Positions 10,485 through 43,879 are shown, counted from the first letter of the stretch. The stretch is 64,000 bases of DNA from an uncultured Phycisphaerales bacterium (GCA_963718665.1 OY970359.1:288001-352000); one strand, 5' to 3'. Numbers and translations are program-made. The notes: a model not told the origin generated them from the letters alone.

Positions 10485-11507
10485 ATGGCCGGTATGTTCT
10501 ATTCAATCAAAGAGGTCGCTGAAAAGCTCGGCAAAAGCGAAGATGAGGTTAGGCAGATAGTAAAAAGCGGTCGGCTGCGCGAGTTCCGCGACGGGTCGAA
10601 CCTGCTGTTCAAAGTCGATGAGGTAAATTCACTGCTGTCGGATACGAGTTTTATGGCAGTCAATAAGCCGTCAGATACGCCGGCCCCGACGAAAAGCGAA
10701 GAAGTCGGAGCAGATGAAGTACTGCTTGCGCCGGAAACAGCCGGCCCCCCGGAAAAAGCCGACGAGGAGCTTCAACTGACCGACGCCGATACGCAGATTG
10801 TCGATGATGGTATTAAGGTCCTGGGCGATACCGACTCATTAAGCAAAGAAGGCAGCGATGAGACATTCAAAGGCCTCGATGAAACAGCCGGTTCACCCGG
10901 CAAAGAGGCATCGCTCGAGGAAATCGAAAAAGACGCGAATTTGGATACCTTCGGCAGCGGTTCAGGTCTTCTTGACCTGTCGTTGCAGGCAGATGACACA
11001 TCATTGGGCGGAATACTTGACGAGATTTATACTCCCGGCGGAGAAGGTAAAGCCCCGGCGGCAGGTGAGCCGGCGGCAGATAAGGCGGGTGCGGAAGGTT
11101 CGGCAATGGAAGTAGCAGCCGAAGCGGACCAGATGCTATCCGCAGACCAATTCCACGAAACGCCTATAGCAGCGCCCGCAGCGGCGGCTATGGCGTATGT
11201 CGAGTCGGCTCCTGACGCGATGAGCAACGCACTGGGCGTTATGCTGTTTATACCCATTTTAGCGGTCGTTTACACAATTATTGCGGCGATATCGGCGCTG
11301 AGCAGCGTTACGCCGGATATCGTGAAGATGTCGCAGAGTTTCATCTGGTATATCGCTATCGGTATGGCTGTCGCGTCGATTCTGATAGCCATAGTGGGCA
11401 TGGTAATGAGCGGCGAAAAGAAACCCAAGGCACCGAAAGCACCAAAGCCGCCAAAAGTCAAAAAGGAAAAGCCGCCTAAACCGGTCAAAGAGAAAAAGGC
11501 GAAATAG
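10485..11507 (+). CDS. Excisionase-like HTH protein with acidic linker and two C-terminal TM helices
   Basis: FYSIKEVAEKLGKSEDEVRQIVKSGRLREFRDG (HTH_17/MerR-like), SGSGLLDLSLQADDTSLG motif, 2 TM, K/P-rich tail; SD GGAG. Confidence 0.75.
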   Translation: MAGMFYSIKEVAEKLGKSEDEVRQIVKSGRLREFRDGSNLLFKVDEVNSLLSDTSFMAVNKPSDTPAPTKSEEVGADEVLLAPETAGPPEKADEELQLTDADTQIVDDGIKVLGDTDSLSKEGSDETFKGLDETAGSPGKEASLEEIEKDANLDTFGSGSGLLDLSLQADDTSLGGILDEIYTPGGEGKAPAAGEPAADKAGAEGSAMEVAAEADQMLSADQFHETPIAAPAAAAMAYVESAPDAMSNALGVMLFIPILAVVYTIIAAISALSSVTPDIVKMSQSFIWYIAIGMAVASILIAIVGMVMSGEKKPKAPKAPKPPKVKKEKPPKPVKEKKAK

Positions 11508-12724: not shown

Positions 12725-12860
12725 ACCCGGTTCTCCATAGCCCATTTCGATTATTTCACCGTCTGCGAACATCCTAACAACCTACCGGATTAAGTCAACC
12801 ACCGCATTACATTTGTAGAGAACACGGAATTTTTAGACACGGATTTCTGTACGCTGAACG

Positions 12861-13460
12861 CTATACGCTGTCCGCTGATTCTGCAAAATTCAATCTCGCA
12901 AACTCCCCATGGTATTTCTTCGCTGCCTCATCATACGCCTTCGCCGCTTCGATTTGGGTCTCGAAACTCCCTAAGTAAATTCTTTTCCCCTGATACCTGA
13001 TTCTCGCCCCCCACTTTTTGATTTCTTTTATAAAATAGAGCCCGATATATTTCGATGCCGTCTTTCCTCTGATTTTTGGCCTGTTATACGTATTCTGTGC
13101 AGGCGTCGCAAATCGCAGATTCGCCCTCCTGTTATCGAGAGAATCCCCGTTTTCGTGGTCAACAAGGGTCCCTTTGGGCGCATCGAGAATTTCCCTGTGC
13201 AAAAACGATGTCTTGACCCGCCCTGCAATGGTTTGTTTGAGGACCCGGACAGCATAGAAACGCTCGTTTTCGCCTGCTGCTGACCACTTCAGATGGCCGA
13301 ATTTATAATAATCCGCCGGCTCAACTATCGTCCACTCCCCTTCGCCCAAATATATCCGCCGATATGTATAGCCGTAACGGAGCAGGCGAAAGGCGAGCAA
13401 TGGACAGGTGAAAATAAAATCGAGCCAAACAGGTATCGTTATTGTTAATTGTGCAGACAT
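12861..13460 (-). CDS. HNH endonuclease fused to an AP2 DNA-binding domain (homing-endonuclease-like)
   Basis: LHREIL...VDHENGDSLDNRRANLRFATPAQN (HNH); SKYIG...KWGARI...IYLGSF...EAAKAYDEAA...GEFARLNF (AP2); SD GAGGAGG before ATG 13460. Confidence 0.9.
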   Translation of the reverse strand: MSAQLTITIPVWLDFIFTCPLLAFRLLRYGYTYRRIYLGEGEWTIVEPADYYKFGHLKWSAAGENERFYAVRVLKQTIAGRVKTSFLHREILDAPKGTLVDHENGDSLDNRRANLRFATPAQNTYNRPKIRGKTASKYIGLYFIKEIKKWGARIRYQGKRIYLGSFETQIEAAKAYDEAAKKYHGEFARLNFAESADSV

Positions 13461-13479
13461 ACTTATTCCTCCTCGGAGC

Positions 13480-13710
13480 GTAGCGCAGATCCCCGCCTGC
13501 CCTCGACTGCTGCTCACTCGGCTTTGCAATCGGGGGAGAACCCGCCCCATTGGTTCCGCAACAGGGGACCCATAAAGAAATTCCAAATCCCACTTTTTAA
13601 ATTTACAATCCGAAATTGGAACTTCTGTTCCTGATGCCTTGCCCTCCCGGGGCGAAATGCTTGCTTGCCTCGGCGTAGCTCCTTGAGCGAAGCCGGGCGC
13701 TCTGCGCTAC
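13480..13710 (-). ncRNA. Candidate structured leader/ncRNA upstream of the HNH-AP2 gene
   Basis: Perfect 10-bp inverted repeat GTAGCGCAGA (13480-13489)/TCTGCGCTAC (13701-13710) enclosing several hairpins; no credible ORF. Confidence 0.4.
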
Positions 13711-13723
13711 TACTTTTTCGGAA

Positions 13724-13777
13724 GACAGACGACAGAAGACAGATTAGCCGTCCTCCGACCTCAGTCATCCGTCCTCA
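13724..13777. repeat. Opposed heptamer arrays (GACAGAN x3; GTCCTCN-like x4) able to form a hairpin
   Basis: GACAGAC GACAGAA GACAGAT ... GTCCTCC GACCTCA GTCATCC GTCCTCA. Confidence 0.7.
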
Positions 13778-14241
13778 GAACCCAAAGGTTCTCCTATATA
13801 TAAGGTGAAATTTTGGGTGTTTTAAGGAGTTACGAAACATTAATTTTCTGCCCGAAATTGGTAACTCCTTGCAAGACAAGGAATAAAAAAAATTTCAAAA
13901 ATCGTAAAATTTTTTTGGCAATATAGGCAATATGTCAATAACAGTTACACAGTATTATTTCCCGGCCTGCCCTGAGCAAGCGTAGCAAGTCGAAGGGATT
14001 TTTTTAGGGCACTTGCGAGACAAACGTTTTAAACAAACATATCGCTTACCTATTTTAACATTTCCCCGTCTCTGGCAGACAGATTTCCACTGCTCACCTG
14101 TTCGACTTTTCTAATATCTCGCGCAGCGTGACGCTGTTTTTAATGTGCCCTTAACGCTGGTTTTTACGCGGAAAATTTGGTTTTGAGTGAACAGTTTTCA
14201 ACTGCTCAACTATCTACTTTCCCGGGAACCTCAAAGAAACG

Positions 14242-15231
14242 TTAGGAAAACCACCCATTTGCATTATCCAAAAACGATCCCCTGTCGCACCAGATGATGC
14301 TGATCTTTAGACTCAGTAGCCATTTTTCTATGTTGGGATTCGGTTTCTTCGGAAGAAGAATCGCTTTATGGGGTTCGCCAAATTTCTCCTTCCCTTGGAA
14401 AGCGTAATCCAGAAGCTGCCCCACCGCCATCCTAATGTGTTCTCGCCGTGCGGAGCTTTTGGCCTCAATTAAGTTTCTCCTCTCTTTTTCATATCCATCA
14501 CATCTAAGTGTTCCATATTTTGCCGCTAAAAGTATTCGATCCTGTTTCTTTATCCAGTCCCGATAACTATCTATCAACTTAGCTTCAACCTTTTTAGCCC
14601 TAGTAATTCTGCTCTTCGTTTGAACCTTGTAGTCGAGTTGATGATTTTCGGGCAGATCAACTAAGTCAGTGTTCGGAGTTGTTATTGTTAGGCTACGTTT
14701 GTGCTCTGTCGTTACGCGATGTTTTTCGCCAGCTTTCATGTTCTTGTTGCCGAGATGGTGTTCCATCCAGTTGCAGACTTTTTTGTGAGCATCGTTTCCT
14801 TCGGGGTGAAGTTGAACCAATGCTTTTGTGTGGCGAAGAACATCGCTGAGTGGTATGCCAGATGGCGGTCGGCTCCACGGTTTAAATGGGAACAGTTTTC
14901 GCAGAGACCCAAACTTCTGACCTTGCGGTGACATGAAACCCTTCATCCTTGTTGCGTATTCGCCGTGAACTATTCCAAAACCAACAATTTCTGGCTCGCC
15001 CTTATGTCGCCTCGCAATCAGTATAACATCGCCGGGTTTTATGCCTCGCTTTGTCACGCCAGCGAACTTGGGACCTATTTGGCCATGACCGTAATCATCT
15101 GGTTCCCATCCCATGAAGACCGCGTGTTCCCGGACTGACGCTTCCCTCCACTCACCAACCGTTGCCTCGTTTATGTTCGGCGACACCACCCAATAAACAG
15201 TCTTTGATTTTGCCTCTTTCTTATTTGCCAT
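14242..15231 (-). CDS. Putative PD-(D/E)XK nuclease with possible EVE/PUA-like N-terminal domain (candidate restriction/defence protein)
   Basis: C-terminal LRCDGY...LIEAKSS...IRMAVGQLLDY; N-terminal YWVV...FMGW...IKPGDVIL...IVGFGIV. Confidence 0.6.
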   Translation of the reverse strand: MANKKEAKSKTVYWVVSPNINEATVGEWREASVREHAVFMGWEPDDYGHGQIGPKFAGVTKRGIKPGDVILIARRHKGEPEIVGFGIVHGEYATRMKGFMSPQGQKFGSLRKLFPFKPWSRPPSGIPLSDVLRHTKALVQLHPEGNDAHKKVCNWMEHHLGNKNMKAGEKHRVTTEHKRSLTITTPNTDLVDLPENHQLDYKVQTKSRITRAKKVEAKLIDSYRDWIKKQDRILLAAKYGTLRCDGYEKERRNLIEAKSSARREHIRMAVGQLLDYAFQGKEKFGEPHKAILLPKKPNPNIEKWLLSLKISIIWCDRGSFLDNANGWFS

Positions 15232-15352
15232 AACCAGAAAGCTTAATCCCTGCCCAATAATTTGCAAGCCCCATTGCTGAATTATCTTGTCCTAATTATG
15301 CTTTTAGGGTATATTGCCTTACGTACTTAAGCATAATAGTTGGGCTTCAAAA

Positions 15353-15943
15353 ATGAGTGAGAAACACACAATTCGAAATAGGATTATCATTGGTGTTTCG
15401 ACAGGAATCATCTTAACTATTCTTACAAGTGCATGGCTCACAGGGATGCTGATCATGTTTCTCCACTGGTTGTGGTCGGCTATCAAGTTCATGGGCAATC
15501 TTTTAGTTCACCGAGTTGCGATACCAGTGTGGATTATCGCACTGTTTGGTATTTTAGCGATCTTTCCAATTTTGCATCTTGTGCGTCTCCTCGGAAGGAA
15601 AGAGAATGATTTGTCGGAAGACACTTACACCGAAGACAATCTGTTCGGCGTGGTCTGGAGATGGCGTTATAACTCCAGCGGTATAAATAACCTATGGGCA
15701 TTCTGTCCGCATTGCGACCTCGAACTTGTATATAGCGAGAAAAGATCCGAATATTGTGCGCCTTATCTCCATCCACCTGAGTTTACGGAATTCATATGTG
15801 AAAACTGCAATATAAAATCAGAAAAACTGCTGGGGGACAAATCCCATGCCCTGGGTCAGGTTGAACGAGAAATCCGCCGTCGTCTTCGGACAGGTGAATG
15901 GAAAAAAATTCTAGAAATAGGAAAACCTGCCGACCATGGGTAG
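15353..15943 (+). CDS. Hypothetical membrane protein with zinc ribbon
   Basis: 2-3 hydrophobic N-terminal segments; FGVVWRW, FCPHCD...FICENC. Confidence 0.7.
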   Translation: MSEKHTIRNRIIIGVSTGIILTILTSAWLTGMLIMFLHWLWSAIKFMGNLLVHRVAIPVWIIALFGILAIFPILHLVRLLGRKENDLSEDTYTEDNLFGVVWRWRYNSSGINNLWAFCPHCDLELVYSEKRSEYCAPYLHPPEFTEFICENCNIKSEKLLGDKSHALGQVEREIRRRLRTGEWKKILEIGKPADHG

Positions 15944-16043
15944 AATTGGAAAACAAAGAAAATTAAAATTATGGCACGATAACGAAAAATAATTGCTGTT
16001 CCCAGTATTACAAGGCACTAATGAGGAAAGGAACATTGGAATT

Positions 16044-16496
16044 ATGCCAAAACGCAAGCCTTACGAAAAAAGAACTGACCTTGAAAAGATTCACTCGCAA
16101 TGGCACAAGCTAACCGGCCTTCACACTCATGAAGAGTGGTCTGCTGCAATTGTCCGAGCAGCGACCGCTGCTGAACTTGCCGCCAACTTCGCTATACGCA
16201 AAGAGTTCGAGAGCAAAAGCAAATTCAACTCGAAGTTTATAGACAGCTTGTTGCGTTGGGGCAACGGGCTTGAAGGAAAGATAAATCGCTTGTTAATTCC
16301 GCTAACTATTGGCGAGAAACACCACAAGATAATAAAGAAGCTCAAAGGTGCTTCAGAACAAATCAATGGCAAACGCAATGCTATTGCTCATCGGGGTGAG
16401 TTTTGCAACGAAGCGGAATCAAAAGCTGCCATCCAACAGTCGAGAAAATTCGTTGAAACTCTGGTACAAATTTACGAACCAAGCTTTGTGCTATAG
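16044..16496 (+). CDS. HEPN-domain protein (putative RNase)
   Basis: All-helical; AIVRAATAAE N-terminal helix and Rx4H motif RNAIAH. Confidence 0.7.
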   Translation: MPKRKPYEKRTDLEKIHSQWHKLTGLHTHEEWSAAIVRAATAAELAANFAIRKEFESKSKFNSKFIDSLLRWGNGLEGKINRLLIPLTIGEKHHKIIKKLKGASEQINGKRNAIAHRGEFCNEAESKAAIQQSRKFVETLVQIYEPSFVL

Positions 16497-16650
16497 GACA
16501 TAAATCGATGGCCCCCAGCGAACTCCGCATAATCTGTGTCTAAGCAGTCAGCTTTACAAAAGGGCAATAAGCCCTTGTGGATGAAGGCGGGTGGCAAGCA
16601 CACAAACAACGTTTGGAGCATTGCCTCCGCCAAGAACACAAAGCTGACTG

Positions 16651-16750
16651 TCCTCTGTGCAATCTGTGTCCTCTGTGGCTAAACAAAAAAACAGCGTAAC
16701 CAGCGTAATCAGCGTCTAAAAAAATCCTTTGTGTCTTTGCGCCTTTGTGG
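16651..16750 (+). repeat. Cluster of 8-9-mer tandem repeats
   Basis: TCCTCTGTG CAATCTGTG TCCTCTGTG; CAGCGTAAC CAGCGTAAT CAGCGT; CTTTGTGT CTTTGCGC CTTTGTGG. Confidence 0.7.
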
Positions 16751-38971: not shown

Positions 38972-39041
38972 AAAAAACCTCTATCAATCTTTCGATAGAG
39001 GTCTAAAAAATAACCCCTACCGTTGCCGGTAGAGGTTATTA
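38972..39041 (-). terminator. Two tandem intrinsic terminators in the riboswitch leader
   Basis: Minus strand ATAACCTCTACCG-GCAA-CGGTAGGGGTTAT-TTTTT (overlaps the aptamer 3' end), then ACCTCTATC...GATAGAGGT-TTTTT. Confidence 0.75.
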
Positions 39042-39082
39042 TCCCTATTTATGAGGGCGGTTATTAGGCGAACCTCATCGCC
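39029..39082 (-). ncRNA. Fluoride riboswitch (crcB motif) #1, leading the antiporter gene
   Basis: Minus strand GGCGATGAGGTTCGCC...AACCGCCCT...AGGGATAATAACCTCTAC; pseudoknot GAGGT/ACCTC; TTGAAA-N17-TATTAT upstream. Confidence 0.88.
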
Positions 39083-39209
39083 ACCTTATTTGTAATAATA
39101 AAGTAACAGGTGTGAACTTTCAACACAATTTTTGATGTTTTTCGAGCCCCTTCACGAAGGTTCATATTGATTTGACATTTACGGTTATAATGCCGATAAT
39201 AAAAGATAA

Positions 39210-39257
39210 GGGGATGGAGTTCCCCATAACCGCTTGTATTGGCTGATAACTCCTGAC
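39210..39257 (+). ncRNA. Fluoride riboswitch #2, leading the dynamin-enolase operon
   Basis: GGGGATGGAGTTCCCC-ATAACCGC...GCTGATAACTCCT; pseudoknot GGAGT/ACTCC; TTGACA at 39172. Confidence 0.88.
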
Positions 39258-39324
39258 GATTTTCTGCGGCAATTTGGCTGTAGAAACGTAAAATAAGTTG
39301 CGCAAAAGATTAAGGAATGCGGTT

Positions 39325-43656: not shown

Positions 43657-43665
43657 GCACTCAAA

Positions 43666-43719
43666 GTAGAGGTCATCAGCTTAATCAATCGCTAAGCAGT
43701 TCAGGCGAACCTCATCGCC
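43666..43719 (-). ncRNA. Fluoride riboswitch #3, antisense to the operon 3' end
   Basis: Minus strand GGCGATGAGGTTCGCC-TGAACTGCTTAG...TTAAGCTGATGACCTCTAC; first 16 nt identical to #1. Confidence 0.85.
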
Positions 43720-43879
43720 TTTATCGATATGAACGGAATTTTATGTTTTCCCTGACGTTATAATTCAGAACGCACATTAGAAAAGCCCCATCCTCGCCCA
43801 CGGCAATCACACGTTCATGGTTGCGGAATGCGAGCAGGCCGAAATGAAACGGCACAAAGTGCATATAATCCGGAAATAG

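Follow-up and report, generated by a model that had tools for sequence, protein, structure and literature searches.

A free-standing HNH-AP2 endonuclease gene on the minus strand (positions 12861-13460) of the 64,000-nt stretch of DNA analysed here (the window) belongs to a multicopy family of its source genome (G000), and the AT-rich core of its control region (13788-13915, minus strand) is related to the region that precedes the portal gene of a phage-type head operon (G000:C1:1659898-1660025), located 1.36 Mb from the nuclease locus. We consider it about an even bet that these genes are selfish homing-type nucleases that carry a leader related to head-operon DNA and spread, together with neighbouring foreign genes, by way of a predicted gene transfer agent (GTA). 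Sequence comparison demonstrates the elements on which this proposal is built: a common core, its tracking of lineages, conserved head and packaging genes, hypervariable neighbours, and a swap that involved leader, first 40 codons and cargo at the slot of this gene.

The encoded protein (199 aa, start ATG at 13460) is preceded by an SD-like GAGGAGG sequence (13468-13474, minus strand) and contains, as the initial annotation had read it, an HNH_3 (aa 95-124) and an AP2 (aa 136-185) domain, both above the Pfam cut-off; its PHROGs assignment is phrog_99. The catalytic residues D101, H102, N114, and N123 are all in place and, combined with these two domains, give it the signature of a homing endonuclease. 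A structure model computed from a 99-row alignment (pLDDT 87.8) has AP2 domains as its closest structural matches, and neither domain searches nor structure matches revealed RuvC or PLMP. The N-terminal extension of ~32 aa, already singled out as unusual, is indeed so: it has a predicted helix (residues 11-29) followed by a basic patch, its best 19-aa hydropathy reaches 1.74 (median of 1.18 in 127 relatives), and residues 23-36 contain a median of 5 Arg/Lys in the 127 relatives. Viral relatives, which are 35-55% identical to the nuclease, have neither the core nor the hairpins described below and mostly miss the extension, with only 7 of 79 matches beginning before residue 20.

The gene occupies a variable slot (12801-16727) located between a GH5 gene and an rsmH-like gene and ending in short tandem-repeat tracts. 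Upstream of the nuclease, cargo gene 1 (14242-15267, minus strand, 341 aa, 46% GC) has no Pfam, PHROG, PADLOC, or NCBIfam match, and its C-terminus looks by eye like a PD-(D/E)XK nuclease; it is present in 2 of the 41 related genomes, its homolog in G006 being ~7 kb from the nearest HNH-AP2 gene. Cargo genes 2 and 3 (15314-16496, plus strand, 209 and 167 aa, 44% GC) have no family matches. The search for an empty site was successful, since in G007 the GH5 gene directly adjoins the rsmH-like gene, window positions 12822-16716 being absent, and G012 has cargo without nuclease at this slot; the gene therefore shows the optional presence at a fixed site typical of homing endonucleases. The slot contains a 96% identical ortholog with a different upstream gene in G006, and a 44%-identical paralog with other cargo in G019. 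In G017, the same nuclease is found from ~codon 42 onward, preceded by another N-terminus, a leader of a different class (type B, see below), and a gene encoding a 950-aa KAP NTPase. The approximate crossover point maps to 13330-13345 (minus strand): in 30-nt windows, the two copies are 93-100% identical from there to ~12925 and 53-67% identical in codons 1-40. Elsewhere in the window, we observed a gene (10485-11507), convergent with the GH5 gene, for an HTH_17 protein that has a long, acidic stretch of low complexity and a membrane segment at its C-terminus, and three fluoride riboswitch matches (in 39023-39262 and 43660-43728), two of them divergent and ~110 nt apart.

The dispersed copies anticipated by the initial annotation do exist: the source genome has 27 loci, 36-62% identical to the query, and HNH-AP2 matches occur in 27 of the 41 related genomes (21 of 23 congeners have 3-32 matches, and copy number ranges from 0 to 32 within one genus). 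The hallmarks of insertion sequences or transposons are missing: a Pfam search of the variable slot found no transposase, neither target duplication nor terminal repeat was seen there by eye, and the closest paralogs within any of eight genomes are 57-79% identical, so that none of the copies appears to be a recent, transposition-like one. Most paralogs are intact and divergent, with a diverse central recognition region. All of the 132 proteins retain H102 and N123, internal stops occur in 5 of the 132, and the pooled dN/dS is 0.12 over 20 orthologous pairs, which were chosen for their near-identical central regions. Such strong purifying selection and the scarcity of broken copies are as compatible with a host function as with selfishness. 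The proteins are mosaic, with breaks near residues 40 and 165, and the leader types, whose labels were refined afterwards, appear scattered in a quick family tree in which many branches are open. In many cases, orthologous central regions remain at one slot, but unrelated paralogs occupy slots as well, and some orthologs lie elsewhere or in inverted orientation. Genes of both orientations are found at one slot, other HNH-AP2 slots are empty in G000, and a MutH-type restriction-modification cargo with its leader is found in one slot in G000 and in another in G017. One paralog (G000:C1:891852-895427) continues in frame into a ~1000-aa glycoside-hydrolase/glycosyltransferase-like ORF, and long open frames over related HNH-AP2 copies are also found in G006 and G019. 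A DDE transposase occurs twice in or beside HNH-AP2 leaders (G000:C1:501155-502141 and 1714111-1715097), with the first 90 residues identical between the two copies; one of them has displaced the promoter core.

With core profiles A and B, both trained on HNH-AP2 leaders (those of the source genome included, the portal site left out), we retrieved 21 sites at E<0.01 in 2.61 Mb, namely 20 HNH-AP2 leaders and the portal upstream region (E of 8e-35 with profile B and 1e-9 with profile A), which contains no nuclease and precedes the portal, scaffold, and SU10 major capsid genes. The portal-upstream DNA follows the leaders of its own lineage, with scores of 231 versus at most 107 in G026, 305 versus at most 80 in G040, and 290 versus at most 203 in G015; the tracking recurs in three families, although kin are not independent. 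In eight genomes with 0-2 HNH-AP2 matches the portal-upstream scores are at most 63, random controls reaching up to 69. Several 24-nt tiles of the leader likewise recur before 3-8 paralogs and almost nowhere else, a few tiles being dispersed repeats, so that the upstream DNA is conserved and specific to HNH-AP2 genes, a point that the initial annotation had left to be checked.

The core includes A-tracts and two IHF-like boxes (13824-13833 and 13862-13871), recognised by their resemblance to the IHF consensus; only one HU/IHF-family gene was found. We infer that this core is a promoter. Three promoter-like classes occur upstream of HNH-AP2 genes. Type A has sigma70-like boxes, TTAAAA (13820-13825 here) and TATATA (13797-13802), both on the minus strand (13797-13825) and separated by 17 nt, a spacing found in 31 of 33 type-A leaders; sigma54, sigma32, and sigma28 readings of the core were dropped by eye in favour of this sigma70-like spacing. 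Type B has TCAAAA, a GCGCAAG spacer and then CCATAGGAT, in a layout that comprises an upstream box at -135, an IHF-like box at -76, a degenerate -35, and the spacer element. Type C has a canonical TTGAC-17-TAAAAT in the same place, before the same hairpins. A profile of the type-A distal boxes trained without the source genome recovered 10 sites in it, all before HNH-AP2 genes and none before a capsid gene (scores of 63-75 versus -4 for the next one). The copy at 12861-13460 is of type A and has A-tracts and an IHF-like box in common with the portal core; the upstream box, retained in 7 of 33 type-A leaders, is not in place before it. Co-induction with the capsid genes is likely for the type-B copies and, because it is of type A, uncertain for this one.

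The initial annotation saw no phage genes around the nuclease, which holds for the adjacent ORFs but not for the genome, where portal, scaffold, SU10 capsid, and accessory genes are found together (G000:C1:1660149-1669818) and an HTH regulator, ABC, GNAT, ParB, TerS, and TerL form a second cluster (G000:C1:975253-984635). The HTH gene that heads this largely syntenic cluster, a candidate regulator (G000:C1:984189-984635), is of the sigma70-region-4 type; the terminase matched Terminase_6C, and no Terminase_6N match was obtained. The capsid gene was found in 27 of the 41 genomes, which represent 14 of 16 genera, and is almost always single-copy, with identities that fall with kinship from 96% to 57%; portal occurs in 28 of 41 genomes (one of them a remnant) and TerL in 40 of 41, including all 29 good genomes. 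Such kinship-graded identity indicates vertical inheritance of the head and packaging genes across the clade, as in GTAs, and neither an integrase nor a replication module turned up among the ORFs that were listed or scanned in the surroundings of the two loci in G000. The two loci thus show the pattern of a domesticated, GTA-like system and make up a candidate GTA. TerL is kept in 40 of 41 genomes even though about half of the genus is without the head operon. Several local variations accompany these loci. The portal of G040 is cut to 83 codons (G040:C15:22014-22259) and stands behind a full core that matches the leaders of G040's own nucleases, of which there are 11 matches alongside this remnant. 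The terminase cluster of G000 contains inserted DNA methyltransferase/restriction-type and spore-photoproduct-lyase-like genes (979071-982671 of C1), the inserts differing among relatives. In G026, an extension-less HNH-AP2 gene lies between ParB and TerS (G026:C4:99738-100199), a possible ancestral position and a plausible origin of the family.

Under our preferred reading, a phage-type HNH-AP2 gene would have captured the head-operon promoter and then spread. Type-B copies would fire during particle making, and the nuclease, expressed while particles are made or following entry, would nick DNA close to the slot. Such nicks near the gene may help the locus to be packaged or, by conversion, to be copied into recipient cells, the conserved leader and gene ends serving as homology anchors while foreign DNA recombines in alongside. 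The type-A promoter would be a diverged form that mostly lost the upstream activator-like box and gained hairpins; the 12861-13460 copy is likely driven by sigma70 and restrained by these hairpins, which would suit expression after arrival in a recipient. Two observations show that cargo can turn over without the nuclease: variable DNA also lies upstream of the portal core, where no nuclease is present, and the cargo homolog of G006 stands ~7 kb away from the nearest family member. A broader and more tentative version, which we would not put far above a one-in-four chance, sees in these loci an undescribed Sedimentisphaerales GTA and in the HNH-AP2 genes a dispersed, integrase-free cassette system, in which the copies that changed to a housekeeping-type promoter gained a three-hairpin RNA brake bound by the N-terminal extension. 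Each gene would then mark a slot, bias which DNA is packaged or inherited, and let defence genes swap between slots and cells.

The strongest competitor, still rather unlikely in our view, is that the nucleases are host-domesticated accessories, maintained by the cell in many specificities, that open the chromosome for the terminase beside defence islets and thereby give defence genes preference in transfer by particles through the population. It would agree with the low dN/dS and intact catalytic residues, with the promoter common to nucleases and head operon, and with the proximity of 22 of the 27 copies to a low-GC islet (within 1.5 kb). HNH proteins do help packaging in some phages (PMC12967558), and packaging by the GTA of D. 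shibae begins at preferred regions (PMC5786225). Against this stand eight genomes of other families or genera that have head and terminase genes and only 0-2 HNH-AP2 matches, the copy number of 0-32 within a single genus, and the persistence of copies after loss of the head operon, which is missing and replaced at the syntenic site in G007, G019, G020, and G002, where we counted 5, 23, 18, and 27 HNH-AP2 matches, respectively; this persistence weighs against our preferred reading as well.

The neighbourhood of the copies supports our preferred reading and bears also on another possibility, namely that they are anti-phage effectors, their late promoter acting as a decoy that a phage activator switches on, after which the nucleases cut phage or host DNA. 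Upstream genes have a GC content of 45% or less in 14 of 26 cases, compared with 11% of ORFs overall and 14% of the genes beside other long gaps, and downstream genes in 6 of 27. Within a set chosen from these low-GC neighbours, PADLOC identified type II, IIG, and III restriction-modification genes, Fic, dGTPase, PDC-M41, and Hydrolase-TM. This location in defence islets, the diverse recognition region of the paralogs and their persistence without head operon speak for such effectors; the nuclease itself has no PADLOC match, and the leaders track the portal region of their own host instead of diversifying. The core also gave no exact match in IMG/VR and is absent from 79 viral HNH-AP2 loci, although phages carrying it may be unsampled. 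We consider an anti-phage role improbable.

The core might alternatively be a pac/cos-like packaging-initiation or recombination site rather than a promoter, with the nuclease making the first nick. It does have IHF-like boxes between direct repeats, and the variable DNA lies mostly upstream of A and B cores, as it does at the portal core: for 30 of the 59 copies found in four close relatives, G000 has the downstream flank only. Both flanks occur in G000 for just 4 of the 59, and of 24 copies with a common downstream flank a single one has the upstream flank in common too, counts that favour our preferred reading. By contrast, the fixed orientation of the core, 70-400 nt from the start codon at all sites, the strict 17-nt spacing of the boxes and the replacement of the core by a canonical sigma70 promoter in type C speak for a promoter, and we give this alternative little credence.

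The leader had initially been seen as one structured RNA, partner of the nuclease in a ribonucleoprotein that it would guide or mobilise. As annotated, 13461-14241 has no credible ORF, only overlapping frames of 61-90 aa and an in-frame TTG extension of the nuclease ORF, and every one of the annotated stems that we examined is present at its stated position, including GTAGCGCAGA (arms 13480-89 and 13701-10) and those at 13500-10/13526-35, 13581-86/13616-21, 13824-33/13861-70, and 14006-12/14145-51. The whole leader also folds more stably than its shuffled versions (z of -4.45, 20 shuffles), but this signal is confined to 13461-13790 (z of -3.9) and does not extend to the upstream 450 nt (-1.8 for 13791-13950 and -0.8 for 13951-14241). 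The 10-bp stem believed to close a 231-nt domain did not survive comparison, as its arms are two separate local modules, uncoupled across 108 leaders (both arms in 10, only the 5' one in 26, only the 3' one in 9, neither in 63; Fisher p 0.06). Contigs from three of four sequencing runs have one additional base after 13700 that completes a local hairpin, GCGC-AGAA-GCGC, and the window therefore probably has a 1-nt assembly deletion at 13700; small indel errors of the assembly are likely, so that the frameshift in the paralog at G000:C1:2061486 may also be an artefact.

The 780-bp leader is thus a mosaic, not one RNA, made of the AT-rich promoter-like core, a covarying three-hairpin motif, and REP-like and heptamer inserts. 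The 3' arm of the 10-bp repeat belongs to an SD-proximal REP-like hairpin module (13475-13494, minus strand), of which the genome has 7 copies in front of HNH-AP2 genes and 2 in other places. Next to it lie optional stem modules (13500-13571, minus strand), GGGTCCCCTG...GGAACCAATGG and CCCCGATTGC...GTCGAGG, found in some paralog leaders, the former also at 5 other places. Beyond the three-hairpin motif, there are two optional modules (13716-13796, minus strand), a heptamer-repeat hairpin (4 copies in the genome) and a short hairpin that covers the predicted transcription start. The upstream part of the control region (13916-14241, minus strand), whose folding is not above chance, has a REP-like insert near 13960-14000 and two shared motifs (14049-14061 and 14137-14150), the latter also found 373 nt before the portal promoter.

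The three-hairpin motif (13614-13715, minus strand), a predicted 5' UTR element, measures ~70 nt and comprises 13 pairs in hairpins H1 (13697-13707), H2 (13641-13653), and H3 (13618-13631), with a ~35-nt REP-like insert in the H1-H2 linker in this copy. Its members were gathered by a sequence-only profile, and RNAalifold independently arrived at these 13 pairs. Pairing holds for 98% of cells in a set of 18 rows (5 double changes, at 2 pairs) and for 99% in a further 10 rows (8 double changes, at 4 pairs); relatedness inflates these covariation counts, and H2 shows no compensatory change. None of 500 shuffles reached these cell counts, slid controls dropped to 15-49%, and the one-sided changes correspond to G-U pairs on the sense strand. 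Examination of covariation, which the initial annotation had proposed, thus upheld the three-hairpin part; the long-range closing stem is not conserved. The motif is present in 26 of 33 type-A and 14 of 17 type-C leaders (40 of 50 for both) and in none of the 52 type-B leaders. A covariance model detected it in 19 of the 41 genomes, all of one genus, with no match in G026, G033, and G040, which have multicopy nucleases, or before the portal or terminase loci searched (best E 0.016).

An obligatory RNA partner could draw on the covariation of H1-H3 with sense-strand G-U pairs, the occurrence of 12 of 12 matches in the source genome before HNH-AP2 genes, the inserts that mostly fall in linkers and the Arg/Lys patch of the N-terminal extension. 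We find it hard to reconcile with the small size of the motif, its lack in all type-B leaders and outside the genus, the unconserved closing stem and the possession by the protein of its own AP2 DNA-binding domain. Rfam gave nothing for the leader at gathering threshold and two chance matches only at E<=5, with neither RF02033 nor any other relevant family among them. A large partner of the HEARO/omegaRNA type, as initially suggested, accordingly finds no counterpart in RuvC, PLMP, or Rfam matches, and the RNA-partner explanation as a whole seems very improbable. The motif reads instead as an optional 5' UTR regulator. A CsrA role is possible, as two csrA genes are present, yet GGA is missing from most loops; a boxB-like role would be no more than a resemblance. 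An old, inert expansion with leaders of piled-up REP and heptamer repeats, to which several dispersed-repeat modules and the lack of recent duplicates might point, is largely refuted and has next to no chance of being correct, given core and hairpin motifs essentially exclusive to HNH-AP2 genes and portal, purifying selection, and recent swaps between close relatives; in place of the single copy, unconserved upstream DNA and missing covariation that the initial annotation had associated with mere repeats, we found many copies, conserved upstream DNA and covariation in one part of the leader.

GTAs are generally regarded as packaging host DNA with no preference for particular genes, which raises the question of how a selfish gene could cheat them. 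About 20 nuclease genes per genome that carry a head-operon control region and flank rapidly exchanged defence genes offer a direct test of a packaging or inheritance drive in a GTA-like system, and suggest how defence islands could be built without an integrase. The hairpin motif, present only when the portal-type promoter is absent, is in turn a small, testable regulatory RNA. Our literature search, with subscription papers and supplements outside its scope, found neither a described GTA in the host phylum nor a paper on the nuclease-leader-portal arrangement; the parts are of known kinds, and their combination is new relative to the literature searched. What the 12861-13460 locus itself adds is the divergence of type A, the split of the hairpins between promoter classes, and the mapped swap.

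Several known systems resemble this one in part. As in HEARO/IscB-omegaRNA elements, an HNH-containing ORF is associated with structured DNA in its 5' region; the former require RuvC, PLMP, and RF02033 (PMC9755519). Membership of the IscB OMEGA group can be set aside, as we found neither RuvC and HNH with PLMP nor RF02033 in the 5' UTR, and the RNA motif here is small, optional, and limited to a genus. Phage HNH-AP2 homing endonucleases and HEG islands (PMC10448857) are free-standing too, with HNH_3 and AP2 (phrog_99), sit at the boundaries of exchanged DNA, swap domains between paralogs, and occur near terminase genes, whereas the family here is chromosomal, with 27 copies, an N-terminal extension, a capsid-operon promoter, and defence-type neighbours. 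HNH nucleases tied to the DNA-packaging programme, such as HK97 gp74 (as cited there) and Skunavirus HrdP, are single, short (about 13 kDa for HrdP), and located beside the terminase (PMC12967558), while the nucleases described here have AP2 and are multicopy and dispersed. A parallel for the promoters comes from the Caulobacter crescentus GTA, in which GafY binds at -123 to -113, IHF in between, and ~18 accessory promoters have a common activator (PMC11150451). In both systems the head and packaging genes form separate loci that an entire order inherits, and both have a promoter (type B in our case) with far-upstream box, IHF-like box, degenerate -35, and spacer element, and about 20 dispersed co-promoters; the sigma70-region-4-like HTH gene at the head of our terminase cluster is a further possible parallel to the GafY/GafZ/IHF regulon. 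The predicted system reported here differs in belonging to another phylum, in its SU10 capsid family, and in that its dispersed promoters all serve nuclease genes.
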